Assembly (NCBI GenBank): GCA_036499725.1
Contig: DASYDE010000107.1
Span: forward strand, 22,095 to 86,094
Direction of reading: 5' to 3'
Source of the DNA: Kofleriaceae bacterium
Lineage (GTDB): Bacteria; Myxococcota_A; Polyangia; Haliangiales; Haliangiaceae
DNA length: 64,000 nucleotides
Position 1 is the first letter of the stretch; the number at the start of each line of letters is the position of its first letter. Position numbers and translations under genes: made by a program. The notes below the pieces were generated by a model. The model had not been told where the DNA came from and made no database searches. It saw only the letters and a program-made list of their open reading frames with translations. Shown piece by piece: positions 1 to 9,348 of this stretch.

Positions 1-1
1 G

Positions 2-277
2 CTCCCCGCCGACGAGCGCAACCAGCTGTTCGATGTCATCCGTGGAGTCCCCGCCGACAGCGACGCACTCAAGGAGAAGTTCCCGACGGACAAAGACATC
101 ATCGCGGCGCTGCTCGCTGATCCGAGCGTGTCGCTGCGGTGTGTCGCTGCGCACCATGTCGTCGAGCGAAAGATGGTCGCGCTGCGCGACGAGCTCGTGC
201 GCCTGAAACCTGTCACCGCGTCGCCGCTCGTCACGAGCGCGTTCGAACAAGCTCTCGCGAGGTTGCCGCATGCCTGA
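2..277 (+). CDS. 3' end of an upstream CDS (hypothetical, last 91 aa; 5' end outside window)
   Basis: Frame 2 is open from the window edge to TGA 275-277 (LPADERNQLFDVIRGVP...AFEQALARLPHA*) with G/C-rich third positions. The stop overlaps the next ATG (ATGCCTGA). It is absent from the ORF track because it has no start. Confidence 0.5.
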   Translation, partial: LPADERNQLFDVIRGVPADSDALKEKFPTDKDIIAALLADPSVSLRCVAAHHVVERKMVALRDELVRLKPVTASPLVTSAFEQALARLPHA

Positions 278-1274
278 TTCAGTTCGTCTCCCACGCATGC
301 AAGAACGCGTTGCTGATCCCCATCGCCAATCGCCCGTGCAGCGCTTGCTCACGCTCCGCAAGTTCCCCGGACTCGCGGACGCTGATCTCGGCGAGCTCGC
401 GATCATCGCCGAGAACGTGGTCGAGCAGACGTTCCCTGCGGGTGCCATCGTGGCGAGCGCGGCCCGCCGCGTTCCCGGCGAGAAGCACCGCGCGCAGATG
501 ATGTCGCCGTCGGGGCCGGCCCTCTATCTCGTGACCAGCGGAAAGCTCATCAGTGCGTCTGGCAAGCACTGGGGACAGCACGAAGTCTGTGGCGCGCTCC
601 AAGCGATGGCCGGTCGACGTACCACCGAGGACATCCTCGCGGAGGTCGAGTCGACAACGCTCCGACTCACCGCCGCTGACTTCCGCGAGATCCTCGAGGA
701 TAACTTCGGGCTCCTCTCCGCCGTGCGACGTACCCTCGCGCGCGAGCTGCTCACTCTCTCGCTCAGGCCGCCGTCGCAGGACGAAACGAAGGTGCTGCTC
801 CCGGAGGTCACGACCGACTCTCCCCTCGGCATGGTCGAGCGCCTGATGGTCCTGCGGAAGCGCCTACCGTTTGGGAAAGGTCGCATCGAGGCACTCGCGG
901 CGCTGTCGCAGAGTGCCGACGAAATTCGCGTGCCCGCGCGCACCGATCTCGCGACGGCGGGCGAGCCAGTCACGGCGGTGACGATCATCCTCGAGGGGAC
1001 GGCGCAAGTGATCCGTCCCGACGGTCAGTTCGTGTTCGGGCCTGGCAGCTCCATCGGCGCGTTCGAATCGCTCGGCGAGGCTCCGCTGACCGCATCGGTC
1101 ACGACGCTCACCCCCGTCCGTGCCCTGAGGTTTCCGGTCACCGCGTTTCTCGACGTTCTCGAAGATCACACCGACCTCGCACTCGCGATGGTCGAGCGGC
1201 TCGCCACGACGCTGCTCGAGCAAGCACCGAACGCGTCGATGAACAGCCTCGTGGAGCGACCTCAGGTCAATTAA
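270..1274 (+). CDS. protein with two cyclic-nucleotide-binding-like (Crp-type effector) domains and no visible output domain
   Basis: 334-aa ORF. Two successive ~120-aa segments follow the cNMP-binding pattern (FPGLADADLGELAIIAENVVEQTFPAGAIV...LYLVTSGKL; IRVPARTDLATAGEPVTAVTIILEGTAQVIRPDG...GSSIGAFESL). Family call is by eye. ATG 297 is an alternative start. Confidence 0.55.
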   Translation: MPDSVRLPRMQERVADPHRQSPVQRLLTLRKFPGLADADLGELAIIAENVVEQTFPAGAIVASAARRVPGEKHRAQMMSPSGPALYLVTSGKLISASGKHWGQHEVCGALQAMAGRRTTEDILAEVESTTLRLTAADFREILEDNFGLLSAVRRTLARELLTLSLRPPSQDETKVLLPEVTTDSPLGMVERLMVLRKRLPFGKGRIEALAALSQSADEIRVPARTDLATAGEPVTAVTIILEGTAQVIRPDGQFVFGPGSSIGAFESLGEAPLTASVTTLTPVRALRFPVTAFLDVLEDHTDLALAMVERLATTLLEQAPNASMNSLVERPQVN

Positions 1275-2806
1275 TGCGCTCTCTACTCGTCGTCGCTTTG
1301 CTAGGCAGCGTTGCCTACGCGCAGGAAGCTCCGCCTGCGGACTCGCCTCCCGCGGAGGCCCCCGCGATCGCTCCTGCGGATGCGCTCCCCGCGTTGCCGC
1401 CCGAACAGCCCAAGGTCGAAGAGTTCGATCCGACCAAGCGTGAGGACCAGCCGTCCGATCCGAAGCCGACGGAGGCGAGCGGTGTCGCCGTCGACGAGCC
1501 TGTCACGGGCGAAGCAGGTCGCACCGTCGCGCGCATCGTCCTGTTTGTTCCACGCTGGACGTTCTGGGCCATCGCACAGCCATTCCGCGGTCTCGGATGG
1601 CTCTACGAGCACTACTCGCTACAGGACCGCGTGAAGGGCGTGCTGTTCAACTACGACGGCACCTACGGCGTCTATCCTGTCGGCCGCTACTCGTCGGACT
1701 ACGGGTTCGATCTCGGCCTGCGCTTCGTCCACTACAACCTCGCCGGCGAGCACGAGAAGATGCGCCTGCGCTTCGACTTCGGTGGCGAGTTCCAGCAGGC
1801 CTACGGCATGACGCTCACGAGCGGCACGCGGTTCGGCAAGAAGTTCAACGTCTCGATCGACTCGCTGTACGAGCGCCGCCCGGCCGATCGCTTCTTCGGC
1901 ATCGGTAACGCGAACGAAGCGAAGCCCCCGCCGACGACGCCGCTCGATCCGTCACTCGCGGATGTGGCGAGCAACTCGCGCTTCCAGCAGAACTGGTTCC
2001 ACACGGCGGTGAACTTCGAGTACAAGCCGATCCCGACGGTCGCGTTGCGCAGCAACAACGCGATTGCGCTTCGCAAGTTCTCGAACGCGGCCAATTCGGA
2101 TCCGTACGACCCGACGCAGCCCATGAGCACCGTCGACGACGGCATCGAGCAGCGCTTCGACACGAGCAAGCTCGTCGGCTACGACAGCGGCGTCAAGAAC
2201 CTCTACTTCGAGCTCGAAGCGATCTACGACACGCGGCGTCCGTCGAGCCGCTTCCAACCGCCCGTGTTCGAAACGACCGGCGTGTACGCATCGATCCACG
2301 GCGGACGCGCGGCGGGCATCGACGGTGACCCGACAGCGTTCTGGCGATACGGCGGTGAAGTGCAGAAGCTGTTCGACCTCTACCACGGCACGCGCGTGCT
2401 CACTCTCCGCGGCATGATCGATGCTGTCGCGGGTGGTGATGGCCGCACCGACAAGACGATCTCGTTCATCGATCTGCCGCGCCTCGGCGGCGTTGACTGG
2501 TTGCGCGGATACCCCGACGGCCGCTTCCGCGACAAGGCCGTGACGCTCGTGACGGCGGAGTACGGCTGGGACCTCGGCAACTTCGTGAGCTCGTATCTAT
2601 TCCTCGACGGTGGCCGCACGTGGAGCGGGCTCGAGAAGGTCGATCCCCAGAGCCTGCACTACGGCTTTGGCGGCGGCATCGAGCTGCATACCAACGACAG
2701 CTTTCTCATGCGTGGACAGCTCGCGTTCTCGCGCGAGGGTGACGTGTTTATCGAGCTCGCACTGCGCCCGGCGTTTGGTCGCCGCGAGCGCGCGGGGAGA
2801 TACTGA
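1274..2806 (+). CDS. Omp85/BamA-superfamily outer-membrane beta-barrel protein
   Basis: 510 aa. Signal peptide MRSLLVVALLGSVAYA|QE, then a Pro/Ala-rich linker. The C-terminal half carries surface-antigen-type motifs (LRGYPDGRF, AEYGWDL, FLDGGRTW, GFGGGIELH). TAATG overlap with the upstream stop. Confidence 0.75.
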   Translation: MRSLLVVALLGSVAYAQEAPPADSPPAEAPAIAPADALPALPPEQPKVEEFDPTKREDQPSDPKPTEASGVAVDEPVTGEAGRTVARIVLFVPRWTFWAIAQPFRGLGWLYEHYSLQDRVKGVLFNYDGTYGVYPVGRYSSDYGFDLGLRFVHYNLAGEHEKMRLRFDFGGEFQQAYGMTLTSGTRFGKKFNVSIDSLYERRPADRFFGIGNANEAKPPPTTPLDPSLADVASNSRFQQNWFHTAVNFEYKPIPTVALRSNNAIALRKFSNAANSDPYDPTQPMSTVDDGIEQRFDTSKLVGYDSGVKNLYFELEAIYDTRRPSSRFQPPVFETTGVYASIHGGRAAGIDGDPTAFWRYGGEVQKLFDLYHGTRVLTLRGMIDAVAGGDGRTDKTISFIDLPRLGGVDWLRGYPDGRFRDKAVTLVTAEYGWDLGNFVSSYLFLDGGRTWSGLEKVDPQSLHYGFGGGIELHTNDSFLMRGQLAFSREGDVFIELALRPAFGRRERAGRY

Positions 2807-4461
2807 TGAAGAAGCTCCTTCTACTCGCGCTGCTCGTAGCGTGCTCTTCGAGACCCGACGGCGCTGGCACGCTGCGCTTCAAGATCGCACCGCCCGTGTG
2901 GCGCGTCGCCGATCGCGAGCCGCTCGATCACGCTCCGGGCGAGCGCGATTACAACCGCACGCTCTATCACATCGATGGCTACGCCGTTCGCCGCGCGACT
3001 CGTGCGATGGACGTGCAGACGCCGACGCGCGCGAAGGACGTGAACTCGTTCGACGAGGTGCCGGACTCGACGTGGTTCACGAACCGCATCGGCGTCCGCG
3101 ACATCTCCATCGACGAGCTGAAGCGCGGAGCGAACCTCGACCCCTCGCCGATCACGCACCTTCCGTGGACGATCACGGGCGCGAAGGTCGGCGGCACCTC
3201 GATCGGCTTCATCTTCGAGGACACGACCGGGCAGAAGTTCCTGCTCAAGTTCGACGTGCCCGAGCGTCCCGAGATGGAGACGGGCGCCCACGCGATCGGT
3301 CACCGTCTGGTATGGGCCGCCGGCTACAACGTTCCGGAGGACTACGTCGAGTACATCGACCGCAAGGATCTCGTCATCGGATCCAAGGCGAGCAAGAAGG
3401 ACGTGTTCGGCAACAAGGAGCCGCTCACAGAAGCGGAGCTCGACGCGGCGCTGAAGAAGGTCTACGTCCGCGAGGACGGAAAGATCCGCGTGCTCGCGAG
3501 CCGATTCCTGCCCGGCGTTCCGATCGGCCCGTACGCGCGCGAAGGCACCCGCAAGGACGACAAGAACGACACGATTCCGCATCAGTTCCGTCGCAGCGTG
3601 CGCGGTCAGGTCCCGCTGTTCTCCGTGATGAACCACACGGACATGCAGGAGGACAACACGCTCGACGCGTTCGTCGCGTACAAGGGTCCCGACGGAAAGC
3701 CGGGCAAGGCGGGCCATGTCGTTCACTACATGATCGACTTCGGCAAAGCGTTCGGCGTGATGGGATGGGGCCTGCACTGGAAGACAGTCGGCTACACGTA
3801 CCGCGTCGATATCGCCAAGGCGCTCTCGTCGCTGCTCACGCTCGGCCTGCGTCCACGCGAGTGGGACGCGGTGTCCTCGCCGCCGTACCTGGGCCTCGGT
3901 CTCTACGAGTCGGAGCACTACGATCCCGAGACGTGGCGGCCGAACAGCTTGTACTGGCCGTACGAGGACATCGACAACGTCGACGGCTACTGGGGCGCGA
4001 AGATCACGATGCGCTTCACGCCGGAGCAGATCGAAGCGGTTGTCGGCGAAGCAAAGTTCTCGGACCCGCGGACGGCCCGGTACATGGCGGACACGATCAT
4101 CGCTCGCCAGCGCAAGACGGGGAAGTACTGGTTCCGCCAGTCATCGCCGCTCGACACGTTCTCGGTTCAGGGCACACACCTCTGCTTCGACGACCTCGCG
4201 GTGCACTACCAACTCGAGCAGACCGCGGGCAGCCGCTACAGCATCGAAGTGTTCGACGGCGCGGGTAAGCAACTCTCGGCCGCGCGCACGCTCCAGGGTC
4301 AGGAGCACTCGTGCGTCGAGGTGCCCACGGGCGCGACAGCGGACGCGTATACGATCGTGCGGCTCGCCGTGCAGCGCAATGGCAACGTGATCGCGCCGGT
4401 GCTCGTGCATCTCGCGAAGACCAATGGCGCGCTCGGCGTCATCGGCATTCGCCGCCTCTGA
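2806..4461 (+). CDS. exported lipoprotein with protein/lipid-kinase-like (PI3/PI4-kinase-like) catalytic motifs
   Basis: 551 aa. Lipobox LLALLVAC|SS. Ordered kinase-like motifs: GAKVGGTSIGFIFEDTTGQKFLLKFD (Gly loop plus Lys), MNHTDMQEDN (HxDxxxxN) and HYMIDFGKAFG (DFG-type). TGATG overlap with the Omp85 gene. The CDS is solid; the function is inference. Confidence 0.7.
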   Translation: MKKLLLLALLVACSSRPDGAGTLRFKIAPPVWRVADREPLDHAPGERDYNRTLYHIDGYAVRRATRAMDVQTPTRAKDVNSFDEVPDSTWFTNRIGVRDISIDELKRGANLDPSPITHLPWTITGAKVGGTSIGFIFEDTTGQKFLLKFDVPERPEMETGAHAIGHRLVWAAGYNVPEDYVEYIDRKDLVIGSKASKKDVFGNKEPLTEAELDAALKKVYVREDGKIRVLASRFLPGVPIGPYAREGTRKDDKNDTIPHQFRRSVRGQVPLFSVMNHTDMQEDNTLDAFVAYKGPDGKPGKAGHVVHYMIDFGKAFGVMGWGLHWKTVGYTYRVDIAKALSSLLTLGLRPREWDAVSSPPYLGLGLYESEHYDPETWRPNSLYWPYEDIDNVDGYWGAKITMRFTPEQIEAVVGEAKFSDPRTARYMADTIIARQRKTGKYWFRQSSPLDTFSVQGTHLCFDDLAVHYQLEQTAGSRYSIEVFDGAGKQLSAARTLQGQEHSCVEVPTGATADAYTIVRLAVQRNGNVIAPVLVHLAKTNGALGVIGIRRL

Positions 4462-4474
4462 TCGAAGAGCTTGC

Positions 4475-5398
4475 TCAGAACTTGAACGCGACACCGACGG
4501 TCGCACTCGTGGACGTGACGCTCGGCGTGAACATGATCTCGCGCGCCTTGTGATCCTGGTAGCGGTGCTCTTGGTACTTGTAGAACAGCATCGAGCTCAC
4601 CGTGCCGAGCACCGCGCCCGCAGCGACGTCGGTGAGGTTGTGGCGATCGTGAAGAATGCGCTCCGCGCCGACGGCGCTCGCGGCGAGCGTGATGCCCGTG
4701 TACGAGAGCAGCTCGGGCGCGCTGAGGAAGTGGTCGCCGCGCGTCTTGTTGAACACGTGTCCGTGCAGATACATGATCGAATACGACGCGATCGCGAACG
4801 CCTGCGTCGTGTGGCCGGACGGGAACGAGCTGCGCTCGCTGGGGGTGTCGTTCGTGGGCGACCAATCGGGGCGGTGCCGCGCGAACGTGTCCTTGATGAT
4901 ACCCGTCATCAACGCGCCCGACATGAGCGACTCCGCGAGTCCCTTTGCGTGATAGCTGCCGCCTTCTGCACCACTGGCAAGCATGCCGAGCGCGACGGCG
5001 CCGCCGGCCGCGGTGACGGACCAACCGGGCACTTCCCACGAAGAGCGCGCCGCTCCACCTTCGCTCGACGAGAACATCAGCGGCGTGGTACCGGGCGAGA
5101 CGTAGTGATCGAGTGCGAGGCGACCGAGCATCGGTGCCCAGAAGAACGGGATCATGCCGCCGTCCCAGAGGTACGAGAGCTTGAGGTGCTCGCCTTCGAT
5201 GCCGGTGCCGAGCGTCGGCCCACCGAAGTTCAACGCGGGCGAGCCCGATGGATCACCGCTTTGCGTCGACGGATCACCGATTGATGTGGAAGGCGTCGAC
5301 GCAGAGTTGCCGTCAAACGCGAGGGACGTCGGCACCGACTGCGCGAGCGCGACAGAAGGGATCGACGCGATGCATGCGGCAACGATGTACAGCTTCAT
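4475..5398 (-). CDS. PAP2-superfamily (type 2 phosphatidic-acid-phosphatase-like) phosphatase, secreted or membrane
   Basis: All three PAP2 motifs are present: KDTFARHRPD, SFPSGHT and AERILHDRHNLTDV. Start set at ATG 5398 to give signal peptide MKLYIVAACIASIPSVALA; the track start 5422 is also possible. The protein ends in ...VGVAFKF. Confidence 0.85.
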   Translation of the reverse strand: MKLYIVAACIASIPSVALAQSVPTSLAFDGNSASTPSTSIGDPSTQSGDPSGSPALNFGGPTLGTGIEGEHLKLSYLWDGGMIPFFWAPMLGRLALDHYVSPGTTPLMFSSSEGGAARSSWEVPGWSVTAAGGAVALGMLASGAEGGSYHAKGLAESLMSGALMTGIIKDTFARHRPDWSPTNDTPSERSSFPSGHTTQAFAIASYSIMYLHGHVFNKTRGDHFLSAPELLSYTGITLAASAVGAERILHDRHNLTDVAAGAVLGTVSSMLFYKYQEHRYQDHKAREIMFTPSVTSTSATVGVAFKF

Positions 5399-5534
5399 TT
5401 TCACCACCGTGAAAAACGACACGGTCGGAGATAGCGCTGTTGCAAAAAAACGGCATGAACAACACGGGCTTGTCCTCTGGGAATTTCTTGTCTGACCCTG
5501 GCCACGATGTAGGCTTCGTGTTCTCTGGTGACCC

Positions 5535-6434
5535 GTGACCTCTGACGTTCCTCCGCAACGCGGCGTGATGCTCGCGTGCCTGGCGTGCGTCTATGTCGTG
5601 TGGGGCTCGACGTATTTGGCGATGCAGCTCACCGTCGTCGAGGTTGGGCCGCTACTCGCGAGCGGCGTCCGATTCCTCGTCGCGGGTAGTGCCCTCTACC
5701 TGATCGGGCGGGGGAAAGCGAAGGTCCGCCCGACCTGGCGCGACTGGCTCAGCGTGGTGCCCGTGGGCTTGTCGCTGTTCTTGTGTGGCAACGGCTTCAT
5801 CGGGATCGCGGTCGAAACATCCGGCTCCGGCACGATCCCGTCGGGTACGACGGCCGTCGTCGCGGCGATGATGCCGTTGTGGATTGGTGTGCTAGGCGTC
5901 CTGTTCGGCCTCAGGCCAACGCGCCGCGAGCTGCTCGCACTCGTCATCGGCTTCGCCGGAATTCTGGTTCTCGCGCGCGGTCCGTCGCTCAAGGGCGACC
6001 CGGTGCACGTCGTGCTGCTGCTGCTCTCGCCGATGCTGTGGGCATTTGGCTCGCTGCTCACGCGGCGGCTGAAGTTCGAGGCAGCAAGAGATCCGATGAC
6101 GCTGCCCGCGATGCAGCTGATCACGGGCGGCGTCGTGATGCTCATCGCAGCACCGCTCCACGGCGAGCACATTCCAACGCACGTCAGCGGTCAGGTGTGG
6201 CTCTCGTTCTCGTACCTGGTGCTGATCGGGTCGCTGTTAACGTTCACGGCGTACTCGTGGTTGTTGCGCAACACGCGACCGATCGTCGCGACGAGCTACG
6301 CGTTCGTGAACCCGACCATCGCGGTGCTCCTCGGAGCGGGGATCCACGGTGAGAAGCTCGGGATCAAACTTCTGATCGCGAATGCGATGATGGTCATCGC
6401 GATCTATCTCGCTGTCACGAAACGCAAGGCATGA
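5535..6434 (+). CDS. EamA/DMT-family transporter
   Basis: 299 aa with about 10 hydrophobic segments and the two-EamA-repeat architecture. Tandem paralog of the next gene. Confidence 0.85.
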   Translation: MTSDVPPQRGVMLACLACVYVVWGSTYLAMQLTVVEVGPLLASGVRFLVAGSALYLIGRGKAKVRPTWRDWLSVVPVGLSLFLCGNGFIGIAVETSGSGTIPSGTTAVVAAMMPLWIGVLGVLFGLRPTRRELLALVIGFAGILVLARGPSLKGDPVHVVLLLLSPMLWAFGSLLTRRLKFEAARDPMTLPAMQLITGGVVMLIAAPLHGEHIPTHVSGQVWLSFSYLVLIGSLLTFTAYSWLLRNTRPIVATSYAFVNPTIAVLLGAGIHGEKLGIKLLIANAMMVIAIYLAVTKRKA

Positions 6435-7327
6435 GCAGCGACGCTCCTCCGCGCGGGCTGTTGGTCGCATGCCTCGCGTGCGTCTACATCGTATGGGGCT
6501 CCGTCTACCTCGCGATGCAGGTCGCGATCGAGGACATGGGGCCGCTCACCATGGGTGGACTGCGCTTCCTGCTCGCTGGCGTCATTCTCTATGCGATCGC
6601 GACGCGCAAGACGAAGGTCCGTCCAACGCTGCGTGACTGGCGGAGCGTGCTGCCCATCGGCGTGACGCTCTTCCTCGGCGGCAACGGGTTCATCGCCATC
6701 GCCGTCGAGAAGACCGCGCGCGGCACCATTCCATCGGGAACCGTCGGTGTTGTCGCGGCGATGGAGTCACTGTGGATCGCGATCCTCGGCGTGTTCTTCG
6801 GGGTGCGTCCAACGCGCCGCGAGATCTTGGCGCTCGTCAGCGGCTTCATCGGGATCGTGATCCTCACGCGCGGACCGGCCACGGGCGGCGATCCGATGCA
6901 CTTCGTGATTCTCTTGCTGTCGCCCGTGCTGTGGGCCGTTGGTTCGCTGCTCGCTCGCTCGTTGAAGTCGCAGGTCGCGAACGATCCACTGCTGCTGCCC
7001 GCGATGCAGATGATCGTTGGCGGCATCGTGATGCTGATCGTCGCGCCGCTCCATGGCGAGCATCTCCCGACCCACGTGGGTCTGTGGCCCGCGCTCGCGT
7101 TCACGTACTGCGTGATCTTCGGGTCGCTCGTCACGTTCACCGCGTACTCGTGGCTCTTGCGCAATACGCGGCCCCTGATCGCGACGAGCTACGCGTTCGT
7201 GAACCCGACGATCGCGGTGCTGCTGGGCGCGGCCATCCACGGCGAGGCGCTCGGCGTCAATGTGTTGATCGCGAATGCGATGATGGTGATCGCGATCTGG
7301 CTCGCCATCTCACGTCCCAGGCCGTGA
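6431..7327 (+). CDS. EamA/DMT-family transporter (tandem paralog)
   Basis: 298 aa, colinear with the upstream gene (shared LACLACVY.VWGS.YLAMQ, GNGFI.IAVE, TSYAFVNPTIAVLLGA.IHGE, LIANAMMVIAI). ATGA overlap at 6431-6434. Confidence 0.85.
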   Translation: MSSDAPPRGLLVACLACVYIVWGSVYLAMQVAIEDMGPLTMGGLRFLLAGVILYAIATRKTKVRPTLRDWRSVLPIGVTLFLGGNGFIAIAVEKTARGTIPSGTVGVVAAMESLWIAILGVFFGVRPTRREILALVSGFIGIVILTRGPATGGDPMHFVILLLSPVLWAVGSLLARSLKSQVANDPLLLPAMQMIVGGIVMLIVAPLHGEHLPTHVGLWPALAFTYCVIFGSLVTFTAYSWLLRNTRPLIATSYAFVNPTIAVLLGAAIHGEALGVNVLIANAMMVIAIWLAISRPRP

Positions 7328-7374: not shown

Positions 7375-8565
7375 TTGATGTTCCGCCGCCTGATCTGGCC
7401 GTTGTTCGCTGCGTCGCTCGCCGCGTCCGTGGCCGCTTGCGGTGGTGGTACCGCCGAGAAGAAACCCGTCGTCACCAAGTCCAAGAAGGCCGAGCGCAAG
7501 CAACTGCTCGCAAAGGCCCGAAACGAGGCCAAGGACGGCAACGTCGACGACGCAGACGAGGCGTACGAGCAGGCCTACGAGGTCGACAAGGACTTCGACA
7601 CTCTCGAGGAACGCGTCGACTTCCTCACCCATGCCGGCAAGGCGACGAAGGCGCAAGAGGTCGCGAAGGCCTACTACGATGACCACGCGACCGATGCGAA
7701 GGGCTACGCCCTCTACGCGGATGCGCTGCTCGCAGGGAACAAGGGCGCCGAGGCGCTCGAGGTCGCCGAGTCGCTGGTCTCCCTCGACGCGGATGACCCC
7801 GCCGGCCACGAGAAGAAGGGCCTCGCGCTCCTCATGCTCGACAAGTCCGAGGAGGGCATCGACGAGCTCAAGAAGGCGGTCCAGCTCGACTCCAAGGAAG
7901 CCGAGTACCACCTCTCCCTCGGCGCGGCGCTCCAGAAGCTCGGCCAGGTGAACGACGCGGCGCTGGAGTTCCGCGCTGCGCTCAAGGCATCCCCCGACGA
8001 GCCACAGGCCCACGTCGCGCTCGGCGCCGCGCTGCGCGATCAAGGCGAGCTCGAGGAGTCGATGGACCAGCTGCAAAAAGCTCTCAAGCTCGACCCCGAC
8101 AACGGTCGCGCCTACTTCGAGCTCGGCCTCCTCTACAACAAGCAGGGGAAGGCGCCCGACGCCGAGTCCGCGCTCGCCAAGGCCGTGCAGAAGTCGCCGA
8201 ACGAATCGCTGTTCTGGTACGCGTACGGCGAAATCTTCCGCCTCCAGGCGCGCACCGACGAGGCGCTGAACGCGTATCAGAAGGCCGTCGATCTGGATCC
8301 GCCGTATCCAAAGGCAATCGCGAAGCTCGGGCTGCTGCTGATCGAGCGAAAGCAGTACGACGACGCCGAGCGCTTTCTCATCCAGTCGATCCGCCGCGAC
8401 GCGAAGAACCCGTCGAACTATCTGAACCTCGGCGCGGTCTACGCGGCGAAGAAGAAGAACAAGCTCGCGATCGACAACTTCGAGAAGTTCCTCGAGCTCG
8501 CCCCGAAGAACGACCCGGACCGGGCGCGCGCCAAAGACGCGATCCAGGAATTGAAGCACCGCTAG
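7375..8565 (+). CDS. TPR-repeat lipoprotein
   Basis: 396 aa. Lipobox LAASVAAC|GGG. Repeated 34-aa TPR-like units (A..YQKAVDLDP, AYFELGLLYNKQGK, LGAVYAAKKK). Confidence 0.85.
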   Translation: MMFRRLIWPLFAASLAASVAACGGGTAEKKPVVTKSKKAERKQLLAKARNEAKDGNVDDADEAYEQAYEVDKDFDTLEERVDFLTHAGKATKAQEVAKAYYDDHATDAKGYALYADALLAGNKGAEALEVAESLVSLDADDPAGHEKKGLALLMLDKSEEGIDELKKAVQLDSKEAEYHLSLGAALQKLGQVNDAALEFRAALKASPDEPQAHVALGAALRDQGELEESMDQLQKALKLDPDNGRAYFELGLLYNKQGKAPDAESALAKAVQKSPNESLFWYAYGEIFRLQARTDEALNAYQKAVDLDPPYPKAIAKLGLLLIERKQYDDAERFLIQSIRRDAKNPSNYLNLGAVYAAKKKNKLAIDNFEKFLELAPKNDPDRARAKDAIQELKHR

Positions 8566-8580
8566 GCACCTGTATCTATT

Positions 8581-8669
8581 GGATGTTCTTGGTTACTCCA
8601 GACATCCATCCGCTATCGTTGACACTTCATCCGCTGGAGCGTAGATCTTATATCCGTTATGACGGATGT
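8581..8669 (+). promoter_or_regulatory. cysH leader with repeated CATCCG(C/T)T / GGATG motifs and a 16-bp palindrome centred on the start codon
   Basis: A locally AT-richer 93-nt intergenic region. GGATG at 8581. CATCCGCT at 8607-8614 and 8628-8635, 21 bp apart. Perfect palindrome ATCCGT-TATG-ACGGAT at 8652-8667, whose centre contains the cysH ATG (8659). Confidence 0.4.
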
Positions 8670-9348
8670 CGCTCTCGCGAGCAGTGAGCTGGAGCGCGCG
8701 AGCCCGACGGACGTGCTGCGCTGGGCAAGCCGCGAGGTCGGCGACACGCTGACGTTCGCGACCGGCTTCGGGGCGGAGGGTTGCGTGATCATCGATCTGA
8801 TCGCGCGCGCGAAGCTCCCGATCGATCTGTTCACCTTGGATACGGGCGTCCTGTTCCCCGAGACGTACACGCTCTGGCGGCAACTCGAAGCGAAGTACGG
8901 CGTGACGATCCGCGCGGTCCACGGGCTGACGCTCGAAGAGCAAGCGGCGAAGTACGGTGCAGCGCTGTGGGAGCGCGATCCAGACAAGTGCTGCGAGCTA
9001 CGCAAAGTCCAGCCGCTGCGCGAGGCGCTCGTGGGACGCAAAGGTTGGATCTCGGCGATCCGTCGCGACCAGACCGCCGAGCGTGCGAACGCGCAGATCG
9101 TCGAGCACGACGCGAAGTTCGGCATCGTGAAGGTCAACCCGCTCGTCGCGTGGACGCATGACGATGTCTGGGCACACATCTACGCGAACGATGTTCCGAC
9201 GAATCCGCTGCACGAGCAGGGCTATCCATCGATCGGCTGCGCGCCGTGCACGTCGCCGGTGAAGCTCGGTGAAGACGCGCGCGCGGGACGCTGGCGTGGC
9301 AGCAAGAAGAACGAGTGCGGCCTGCACGTGAAAGAGGAGCGCACGTGA
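8659..9348 (+). CDS. cysH: adenylyl-sulfate (APS) reductase, thioredoxin-dependent, Fe-S type
   Basis: 229 aa of the PAPS/APS-reductase family with C-terminal ECGLH. The CC (DKCCELRK) plus CxxC (SIGCAPCT) cysteines are diagnostic of the Fe-S cluster-containing APS-reducing subgroup. Confidence 0.9.

Follow-up and report, generated by a model that had tools for sequence, protein, structure and literature searches.

The window analysed here is a 64,000-nucleotide stretch of DNA (G+C about 65%) from a Kofleriaceae bacterium (contig DASYDE010000107.1, positions 22,095 to 86,094). At its left end lies the downstream part of a five-gene operon encoding a short NTT-type transporter, a longer NTT with HEAT repeats (NTT-HEAT), a cyclic nucleotide monophosphate (cNMP)-binding protein, a barrel of the Omp85 superfamily and a putative exported lipoprotein of the protein-kinase-like (PKL) superfamily. 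In window coordinates, the features are as follows.

1-277, forward strand: 3' end of the NTT-HEAT gene (last 91 codons and stop), truncated by the window edge
270-1274, forward strand: cytoplasmic cNMP-binding protein with two cyclic-nucleotide-binding stretches (PF00027, E 1.9e-17)
1274-2806, forward strand: Omp85-superfamily barrel without POTRA domains, 510 amino acids (aa)
2806-4461, forward strand: predicted exported protein-kinase-like lipoprotein, 551 aa
2806-2844, forward strand: signal peptide and lipobox of the lipoprotein, MKKLLLLALLVA-C13
3043-3093, forward strand: lipoprotein segment N80...EVPDSTWFTNRIG96, the best conserved of the family
3184-3255, forward strand: Gly-rich loop K127-x-G-G-x-x-x-G-F135 and beta-3 strand with Lys148 (LLKFD)
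3631-3666, forward strand: catalytic loop N276-H277-T-D279-M-Q-E-D-N284-T-L-D287 (HxDxxxxN)
3733-3744, forward strand: DFG-type metal-binding motif I310-D311-F312-G313
4150-4458, forward strand: C-terminal beta-sandwich domain, residues 449-551
4475-5422, reverse strand: membrane PAP2 lipid-phosphate phosphatase (PF01569, E 5.6e-22, 78 bits against a cut-off of 27)

The order on the source contig, all on one strand, is TLC/MFS protein (471 aa), MFS-HEAT protein (906 aa at full length), cNMP-binding protein, barrel and kinase, after which comes the convergent PAP2 gene. The short-form NTT gene (471 aa) is directly 5' of NTT-HEAT, beyond the window edge. The frame-2 translation of positions 2-277 matches the C-termini of the long-form NTTs of L001, L003 and L004 (L numbers denote the loci compared below) and shows 100% identity to L081:4752-7472, on the source contig. 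The cNMP-binding protein has 334 aa when read from its first ATG, and 325 aa in the JGI gene call, which starts at 297; 11 loci of the first set described below encode a homologue. Its stop codon (TAA, 1272-1274) overlaps the ATG of the barrel gene by one shared base ('TAATG', 1272-1276). In the same way, the stop codon of the barrel gene (TGA, 2804-2806) has one base in common with the ATG of the lipoprotein gene (2806-2808), giving the 'TGATG' (2804-2808) reported in the first-pass annotation of this DNA. The stop codons of the converging lipoprotein and PAP2 genes are 13 bp apart. The region singled out in that annotation was incomplete on the left, as the cNMP-binding gene and the C-terminus of NTT-HEAT belong with the operon.

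Relatives were sought in GTDB species genomes, of which 185,579 were covered. The first set of 81 loci consists of the window and the best 80 of at least 570, from Myxococcota (Kofleriaceae, Haliangiales, Polyangiaceae, Nannocystaceae and Bradymonadales), Bdellovibrionales, Thermodesulfovibrionia and Acidobacteriota. The second set, queried with the short NTT, has 79 loci and derives from the best 80 of at least 597 species. Conservation was scored over 368 diverse full-length relatives of the lipoprotein, and 38 sequences were the input for its AlphaFold2 (AF2) model.

The lipoprotein belongs to a large, unannotated family for which there is no Pfam or NCBIfam model. No match was found in Pfam, NCBIfam or PDB chains, whether the query was the single sequence, a 38-member profile or each member alone. 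A word-indexed search recovered 1151 proteins of this family, and an exhaustive profile search recovered 3458 clusters at 50% identity, 1057 of them with E < 1e-30; the 150 proteins listed by the profile search were close members only, and no bridge to a known family appeared among them. All members are annotated as hypothetical, and most come from metagenome-assembled genomes (MAGs) of Myxococcota. A search of the literature found no description of the lipoprotein family or of a module combining barrel, kinase and NTT, and when a cultured host was sought for this module only MAGs were found.

The AF2 model of the lipoprotein is confident (predicted local distance difference test (pLDDT) 88.2, predicted template modelling score (pTM) 0.89) and bilobal, with strands at 121-126, 134-138 and 144-149 in the region of the Gly-rich loop and beta-3. 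When the catalytic domain was compared with the PDB by Foldseek, Fam20C, the Golgi casein kinase of animals, was the best match (4kqb/5yh2, probability 0.98-1.0), followed by PINK1, Rio2 and AAK1/BIKE. A viral structure library also returned kinases, with a phage 'PI3K/PI4K catalytic domain' protein at rank 9. The C-terminal 100 residues matched beta-sandwich modules (CBM21, Ig-like). From this model the lipoprotein is predicted to be a kinase-fold member of the PKL superfamily, which bears out the kinase-like character proposed in the first-pass annotation. The likeness to type II PI4-kinase that was also proposed there has to be abandoned, as none of the 38 members matched PI3_PI4_kinase (PF00454) in Pfam at E up to 10 and neither PI4K2A nor PI3K was among the top 50 PDB fold matches. 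Assignment to the Fam20 family of secretory-pathway kinases (PF06702) by profile also failed, with no Pfam match and no PDB sequence match even when the family profile was used.

In a profile-profile alignment with Hanks-type kinase domains encoded by neighbouring genes, all motifs land in register: the two Gly-rich loops coincide, K148 falls on the Lys of AIK, H277-x-D279-x4-N284 on HRDxKxxN and D311-F-G on DFG. The lipoprotein has this motif order and the bilobal fold in common with Hanks kinases (PF00069). It differs from them in lacking a Pfam match, in a large insertion that separates beta-3/alpha-C from the catalytic loop, in its own invariant motifs (EVPDSxWFxNR, DDPND and HxxRRxxRG) and in that its catalytic domain is predicted to be exported, whereas that of Hanks kinases is cytoplasmic.

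The ordered motif set recognized in the first-pass annotation is present at residues 129-150 (GGTSIGFIFEDTTGQKFLLKFD), 276-284 (NHTDMQEDN) and 310-317 (IDFGKAFG). Conservation is high throughout: G130 is kept in 96%, G134 in 97% and K148 in 98% of the relatives; D279 in 99%, N284 in 94% (Q in 5%) and H277 in 84%; and D311 in 99.5%, F312 in 94% and G313 in 90%. Since K148, D279, N284 and D311 are kept in 94-99.5% of relatives, this is probably not a pseudokinase family, an option that the first-pass annotation had allowed. The pattern of conservation is apparently that of an active phosphotransferase.

Residues outside the catalytic motifs are also strongly conserved. In the EVPDSTWFTNRIG segment, S88 and W90 are each kept in 99% of relatives and R94 in 100%. 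Other family-specific invariants are D252, N254 and D255; H259, R262, R263 and R266; and R434. Residues 71-100 form the lowest-confidence part of the monomer model (pLDDT 53-66). Because the most conserved segment is thus the least confidently modelled, EVPDSTWF may be an interface with a partner or a lid. The many invariant basic residues (Arg, Lys and His) hint at an anionic substrate.

Export of the lipoprotein, claimed in the first-pass annotation from the lipobox, is upheld by the family. The lipobox of the window protein is LLVA-C13, followed by Ser. Cys13 is present in 311 of the 368 relatives, and as it is followed by A, G, S or T, with D and K never seen there, sorting is predicted to be of the outer-membrane type. 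Bryobacter-type homologues have a plain signal peptide in place of the lipobox, so export is predicted to be general across the family, with lipidation common and not universal. The C-terminal domain contains a pair of cysteines (C460 in 268 and C503 in 264 of 368, or about 73%), which probably form a disulfide, as expected in an oxidising compartment.

Several homologues depart from the window protein. Those from Acidobacteriota at L160:6366-7895, L130:1129-2760 and L135:11795-13522 have an ordinary signal peptide and no lipobox, and in Bryobacter-type homologues the invariant EVPDSTWFTNRIG segment is exchanged for GEPMEGAWWxxRHYY. A homologue with 37% identity to the Bryobacter protein (L180:5001-6311) was found on a contig of 2.6 Mb whose bin is labelled Thermoleophilia, an actinobacterial class of monoderms. 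Unless that label is mistaken, the family is also present where there is no outer membrane.

The barrel has a signal peptide (MRSLLVVALLGSVAYA|Q), then a disordered Pro-rich stretch (25-79), a long helix (80-124) and 16 strands (131-501) in its AF2 model (pLDDT 80.8). It had no Pfam match itself and reached NCBIfam 'Omp85 family outer membrane protein' at E 9.7e-17, under the cut-off. Most of its homologues carry PF01103 and are annotated at source as BamA/TamA family, and its family profile reaches TamA, a BamA-like protein and Sam50. Foldseek gave the TamA barrel first (4n74, E 5e-15, TMt 0.76) and then many BamA entries. The LRGY motif of loop 6 (R411, G412, Y413) is invariant or nearly so. 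The barrel is therefore a member of the Omp85 superfamily, as first annotated. The N-terminus has no beta-alpha-alpha-beta-beta POTRA unit in the AF2 model and no POTRA match in Pfam, and the barrel fits the POTRA-less 'noNterm' class of Omp85 proteins of Heinz and Lithgow (PMC4104836).

The absence of POTRA domains rules out BamA, TamA and TpsB as identities for the barrel. Two-partner secretion (TPS) was rejected since the window proteins have no match to PF05860 or PF03865. Slam, which consists of a 14-stranded DUF560 barrel with an N-terminal TPR region, was rejected since the barrel here is of the 16-stranded Omp85 type and has no DUF560 match.

Barrel and kinase form a unit and have diverged together. 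Tandem pairs on one strand (66) were recovered from the 81 loci, several of the other loci having no upstream DNA; the two genes, whose pairing the first-pass annotation had proposed to check in other genomes, are found together almost without exception. All three findings named there as refuting its idea (no kinase-like fold, catalytic-looking residues that vary among homologues, genes that are not paired elsewhere) were looked for, and none turned up. Over these 66 pairs, pairwise identities of barrel and kinase are correlated (r = 0.88, Mantel p = 0.001), and the nearest neighbours of the two proteins agree in 29 pairs where about one would be expected by chance. In 49 of 57 pairs the two genes share 4 or 1 bases, where the barrel gene ends and the kinase gene begins, which points to translational coupling. 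Genomes often have two or three barrel-kinase pairs. Tandem duplicates of the pair are found at L035 (on a contig shared with L085) and L039; at L035, genes for an exported metallophosphatase and an NTT lie between the two copies.

Clustering of all open reading frames (ORFs) at the loci showed that the commonest other neighbour is a transporter with a short form of about 450 aa and a long form of about 750-900 aa. Both forms match MFS_1 and the TLC 'ATP/ADP transporter' model of Pfam; in the long form, HEAT repeats (HEAT_2) come in addition. PF03219 was over its gathering score (74.5 bits at L005, 57 bits at L036 and 23-31 bits at others), and L081:3304-4719 has a recorded TLC match. With a short-NTT profile, matches were obtained to solved structures of ADP,ATP carriers (9j3n, E 1.5e-32; 9j3j, chloroplast NTT1, E 3.8e-24). 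The first genes of the operon have exactly the architecture, NTT-HEAT and then a domain binding cyclic nucleotides (cNBD), that is known from free-living bacteria and whose function was left open (Major, Embley and Williams 2017, PMC5381601). No kinase or Omp85 partner is mentioned in that paper, whereas here the transporters are linked to a putative exported kinase.

Of the 81 first-set loci, 30 have NTT genes at a distance of up to 6 kb from the pair, 14 of them in both forms. Seen from the NTT side, a kinase gene is found within 8 kb in 34 of 79 loci, mostly directly adjacent, and the barrel gene is there too in 32 of these. The 34 loci come from Myxococcota, Acidobacteriota, Krumholzibacteriota, Eisenbacteria, Latescibacterota, Gemmatimonadota, KSB1 and Fibrobacteraceae; Thermodesulfovibrionia, added through L067 of the first set, brings the total to nine phylum-level lineages. 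Both families are rare across the species genomes covered, and the chance of NTT and kinase genes being adjacent by accident is estimated at well under 1%. At least in terms of gene neighbourhood, the link is strong and not obligatory.

The same short-NTT subfamily also occurs in Bryobacterales with no kinase within 8 kb (L111, L115, L119, L121, L143, L152 and L155). At L143 and L152 the immediate neighbours of the NTT gene encode a DegP/HtrA-type protease and a double-ABC ATPase. From these loci, the NTT carrier may serve more than one client.

A recurring theme in the neighbourhood is phosphate transfer and removal outside the cytoplasm. Genes for Metallophos proteins with a lipobox or signal peptide adjoin the module at 8 first-set and 17 second-set loci. 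In some cases they are inside the operon, with the order barrel-kinase-Metallophos-NTT in L100 and L149 and NTT-Metallophos-barrel-kinase in L067. The PAP2 gene does converge on the lipoprotein gene, as noted in the first-pass annotation, but PAP2 does not hold as a conserved partner: it adjoins the pair in only 5 of 81 first-set loci, in varying orientation, and also in L082 of the second set. With so few cases it is an occasional neighbour and not part of the module core.

Less frequent recurring neighbours are Hanks kinases, MlaE/F/D, a DegP-type protease and OmpR-type regulators. Hanks-type kinase genes lie near the module in 10 first-set and 11 second-set loci (for example L036:9525-11258 and L154:5196-6896, with about 20 similar ORFs). 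About 250 uncharacterised residues precede the kinase domain of these proteins, which lies in the C-terminal half. They may act as regulators, or be present near the module merely because these genomes are rich in them. In several Kofleriaceae loci, MlaE (with a STAS domain in L102), an MlaF-like ABC ATPase and MlaD are encoded upstream of NTT-barrel-kinase. Mla genes are present at L023, L024, L025, L028, L047, L088, L098 and L102, a hint of a connection with lipids.

In textbooks the periplasm and outer membrane are without ATP, and TonB, trans-envelope bridges or the energy of folding are taken to power outer-membrane processes indirectly. The first-pass annotation was puzzled on this account by a kinase fold outside the cytoplasm. 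The export stands, but the operon begins with two NTT-type genes that had been overlooked, and a candidate solution to the ATP paradox of an exported kinase is thus encoded beside it. The presence of NTT genes in the same operon therefore makes a pseudokinase or a phosphodonor other than ATP less likely. From the evidence above we infer, with a probability of about one half, that phosphotransfer in the periplasm or at the outer membrane is fuelled by ATP/ADP exchange across the inner membrane and that this exchange is regulated.

In such a mechanism the two inner-membrane NTTs would swap cytoplasmic ATP for periplasmic ADP, possibly with inorganic phosphate, and the cytoplasmic HEAT domain and the cNMP-binding protein would gate this exchange. 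The kinase would be tethered at the periplasmic face of the outer membrane and would dock on the barrel, with its invariant N-terminal segment (80-96) as the probable point of contact. There it would spend the delivered ATP in phosphorylating a substrate in the envelope, which might be a lipid, a glycan or a protein, and exported metallophosphatases, or PAP2 at the window locus, would undo the modification. Least secure in this scheme is the part played by the barrel, which may serve as a platform for docking, let substrate pass or, as a translocator, place the kinase on the surface. Stated more broadly, and more tentatively, some diderms may run a regulated periplasmic ATP line in which gated NTT carriers feed an outer-membrane complex of kinase and Omp85 protein. 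This complex might use ATP to power transport or assembly through the barrel.

One further observation is consistent with outward transport by carriers of this kind: cyanobacteria that express NTT-family translocases export ATP when ADP is supplied outside (PMC11632070). Several others weigh against the proposal. The best-studied relative, PamNTT1, kinetically prefers ATP import (PMC1951785). TIGR00769 'NTP/NDP exchange transporter' scores 28-74 bits, far under its cut-off of 387, so the NTTs are distant relatives of the characterised carriers and may therefore transport a different nucleotide or some other compound. An NTT is missing from the fetched flanks at about 60% of kinase loci, and a kinase at about 55% of NTT loci. 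The kinase fold matches score modestly in the Foldseek comparison with the PDB (E about 1e-3, template modelling (TM) score 0.29-0.36), and the profile-profile alignment with Hanks kinases is not significant by itself (P = 0.039) and is used as support only. ATP in the periplasm could leak out via porins. Finally, each step of the mechanism, including the direction of transport, is deduced from genes and models.

Nucleotide scavenging would give the same genes a different purpose. The barrel would be a conduit, the kinase-fold protein would capture or process nucleotides, phosphoesterases would trim them and the NTTs would import them, as in Chlamydia and Rickettsia, from lysed prey or decaying biomass. 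Many hosts do belong to predatory or saprophytic lineages (Myxococcota, Bdellovibrionales), Metallophos enzymes include nucleotidases and the characterised bacterial NTTs are all importers (PMC5381601; PMC1951785). However, a mere binding protein has no need of the catalytic base D279 (99%), of N284 or of the DFG Asp (99.5%), and soil and water are poor in free ATP. Use of a binding protein is not known for MFS/NTT carriers, nor is a role as solute channel for Omp85 barrels, and gating by cNMP and HEAT domains suits the control of costly export at least as well as that of import. Scavenging is thus considered unlikely.

The barrel could also be a dedicated translocator that delivers the kinase to the surface or to vesicles, where it would act on prey, neighbours or the matrix; the first-pass annotation had drawn the analogy with two-partner secretion and Slam. 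As in TpsB/TpsA, Slam, BamA-BamD and LptD-LptE, a barrel gene is coupled to a dedicated exported partner, and the barrel shares the Omp85 superfamily with TpsB and BamA. The tight coupling of barrel and cargo genes and their co-divergence would fit display on the surface, as would the long N-terminal helix and loop-6 motif of the barrel, which are found in translocating Omp85/TpsB proteins, and the conserved, poorly modelled N-terminal segment of the lipoprotein, which could thread the pore. What makes this improbable is that, in contrast to those systems, the barrel has no POTRA and no DUF560/Slam signature, and there is no TPS domain in the cargo and no TamB-like partner. A folded 60-kDa kinase is a big cargo for a 16-stranded barrel, and some homologues are not lipoproteins. 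Nor does surface display alone explain the NTT, cNMP-binding and phosphatase genes.

A less probable reading again, and a rather doubtful one, is that the donor is not ATP or the chemistry is different, with polyphosphate, a lipid pyrophosphate or another nucleotide as donor, or an AMPylation-like transfer, and that the NTT-like carriers move that other compound. Kinase folds can indeed be put to other uses, as SelO and SidJ catalyse reactions other than phosphorylation. The NTT family includes transporters of NAD, other NTPs and S-adenosylmethionine (PMC5381601), and the only established periplasmic phosphorylation, that by LpxT, uses undecaprenyl pyrophosphate (PMC2229476). LpxT is similar in that an envelope molecule receives phosphate on the periplasmic side and in that a PAP2 enzyme adjoins the kinase gene in the window; it differs in being itself a PAP2 phosphotransferase, with no ATP and no kinase fold. 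The motif set of the lipoprotein, by contrast, is the canonical one for transfer of the gamma-phosphate of ATP, in register with Hanks kinases, and the solved structures nearest to the NTTs are those of ATP/ADP carriers.

That the lipoprotein is a non-catalytic subunit, structural or regulatory in an Omp85 assembly machine as BamD is to BamA and with its kinase fold as a scaffold, would suit the obligate pairing with an Omp85 protein and the rule that BamA and LptD have lipoprotein partners, but is very improbable as pseudokinases usually lose the Lys, the HxD Asp or the DFG Asp, each of which is kept here in at least 98% of relatives.

For phosphotransfer fuelled by NTT carriers, the nearest analogy would be phosphorylation in the Golgi lumen by Fam20C. 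Fam20C is the best structural match of the lipoprotein, and both are predicted or known kinase folds outside the cytosol with a signal sequence and conserved cysteines; both would also depend on ATP carried into a non-cytosolic compartment. They differ in that no sequence similarity is detectable between them and the TM score is only 0.29-0.36. The lipoprotein has a canonical HxDxxxxN and DFG, a predicted lipid anchor, a C-terminal beta-sandwich and an Omp85 partner, and its ATP carrier would be of the NTT/MFS and not the SLC35 type.

Each part of the module belongs to a known superfamily, and the combination has no described bacterial counterpart. A module of ATP/ADP-carrier homologues and a putative exported kinase in many phyla makes the assumption that there is no ATP outside the cytoplasm directly testable. 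It offers a candidate first function for the NTT-HEAT/cNBD transporters of free-living bacteria, a question since 2017, and a new role for POTRA-less Omp85 proteins. If periplasmic phosphotransfer fuelled by these carriers is confirmed, it would be the first enzymatic process driven by ATP at the outer membrane of bacteria, a counterpart of phosphorylation in the Golgi lumen, and phosphorylation of lipids, glycans or proteins of the envelope would be a regulatory layer in soil and sediment bacteria.

Beyond the PAP2 gene are two tandem EamA-family genes on the forward strand (5535-6434 and 6431-7327; PF00892, E 2e-31 for the first), which overlap by 4 bases; L001, the closest relative, has an EamA homologue at the equivalent position. 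They are followed by a gene for a TPR-repeat lipoprotein (7375-8565, forward strand) with the lipobox ...SVAACGGG, many TPR matches in Pfam and one weak match to TPR_Slam. A homologue of this lipoprotein is at the equivalent position in L001 and in no other locus. Next on the source contig comes a sulfate-assimilation cluster (8659-9348, forward strand, and downstream L081:15854-18523) with genes for PAPS reductase, APS kinase and siroheme/tetrapyrrole methylase.

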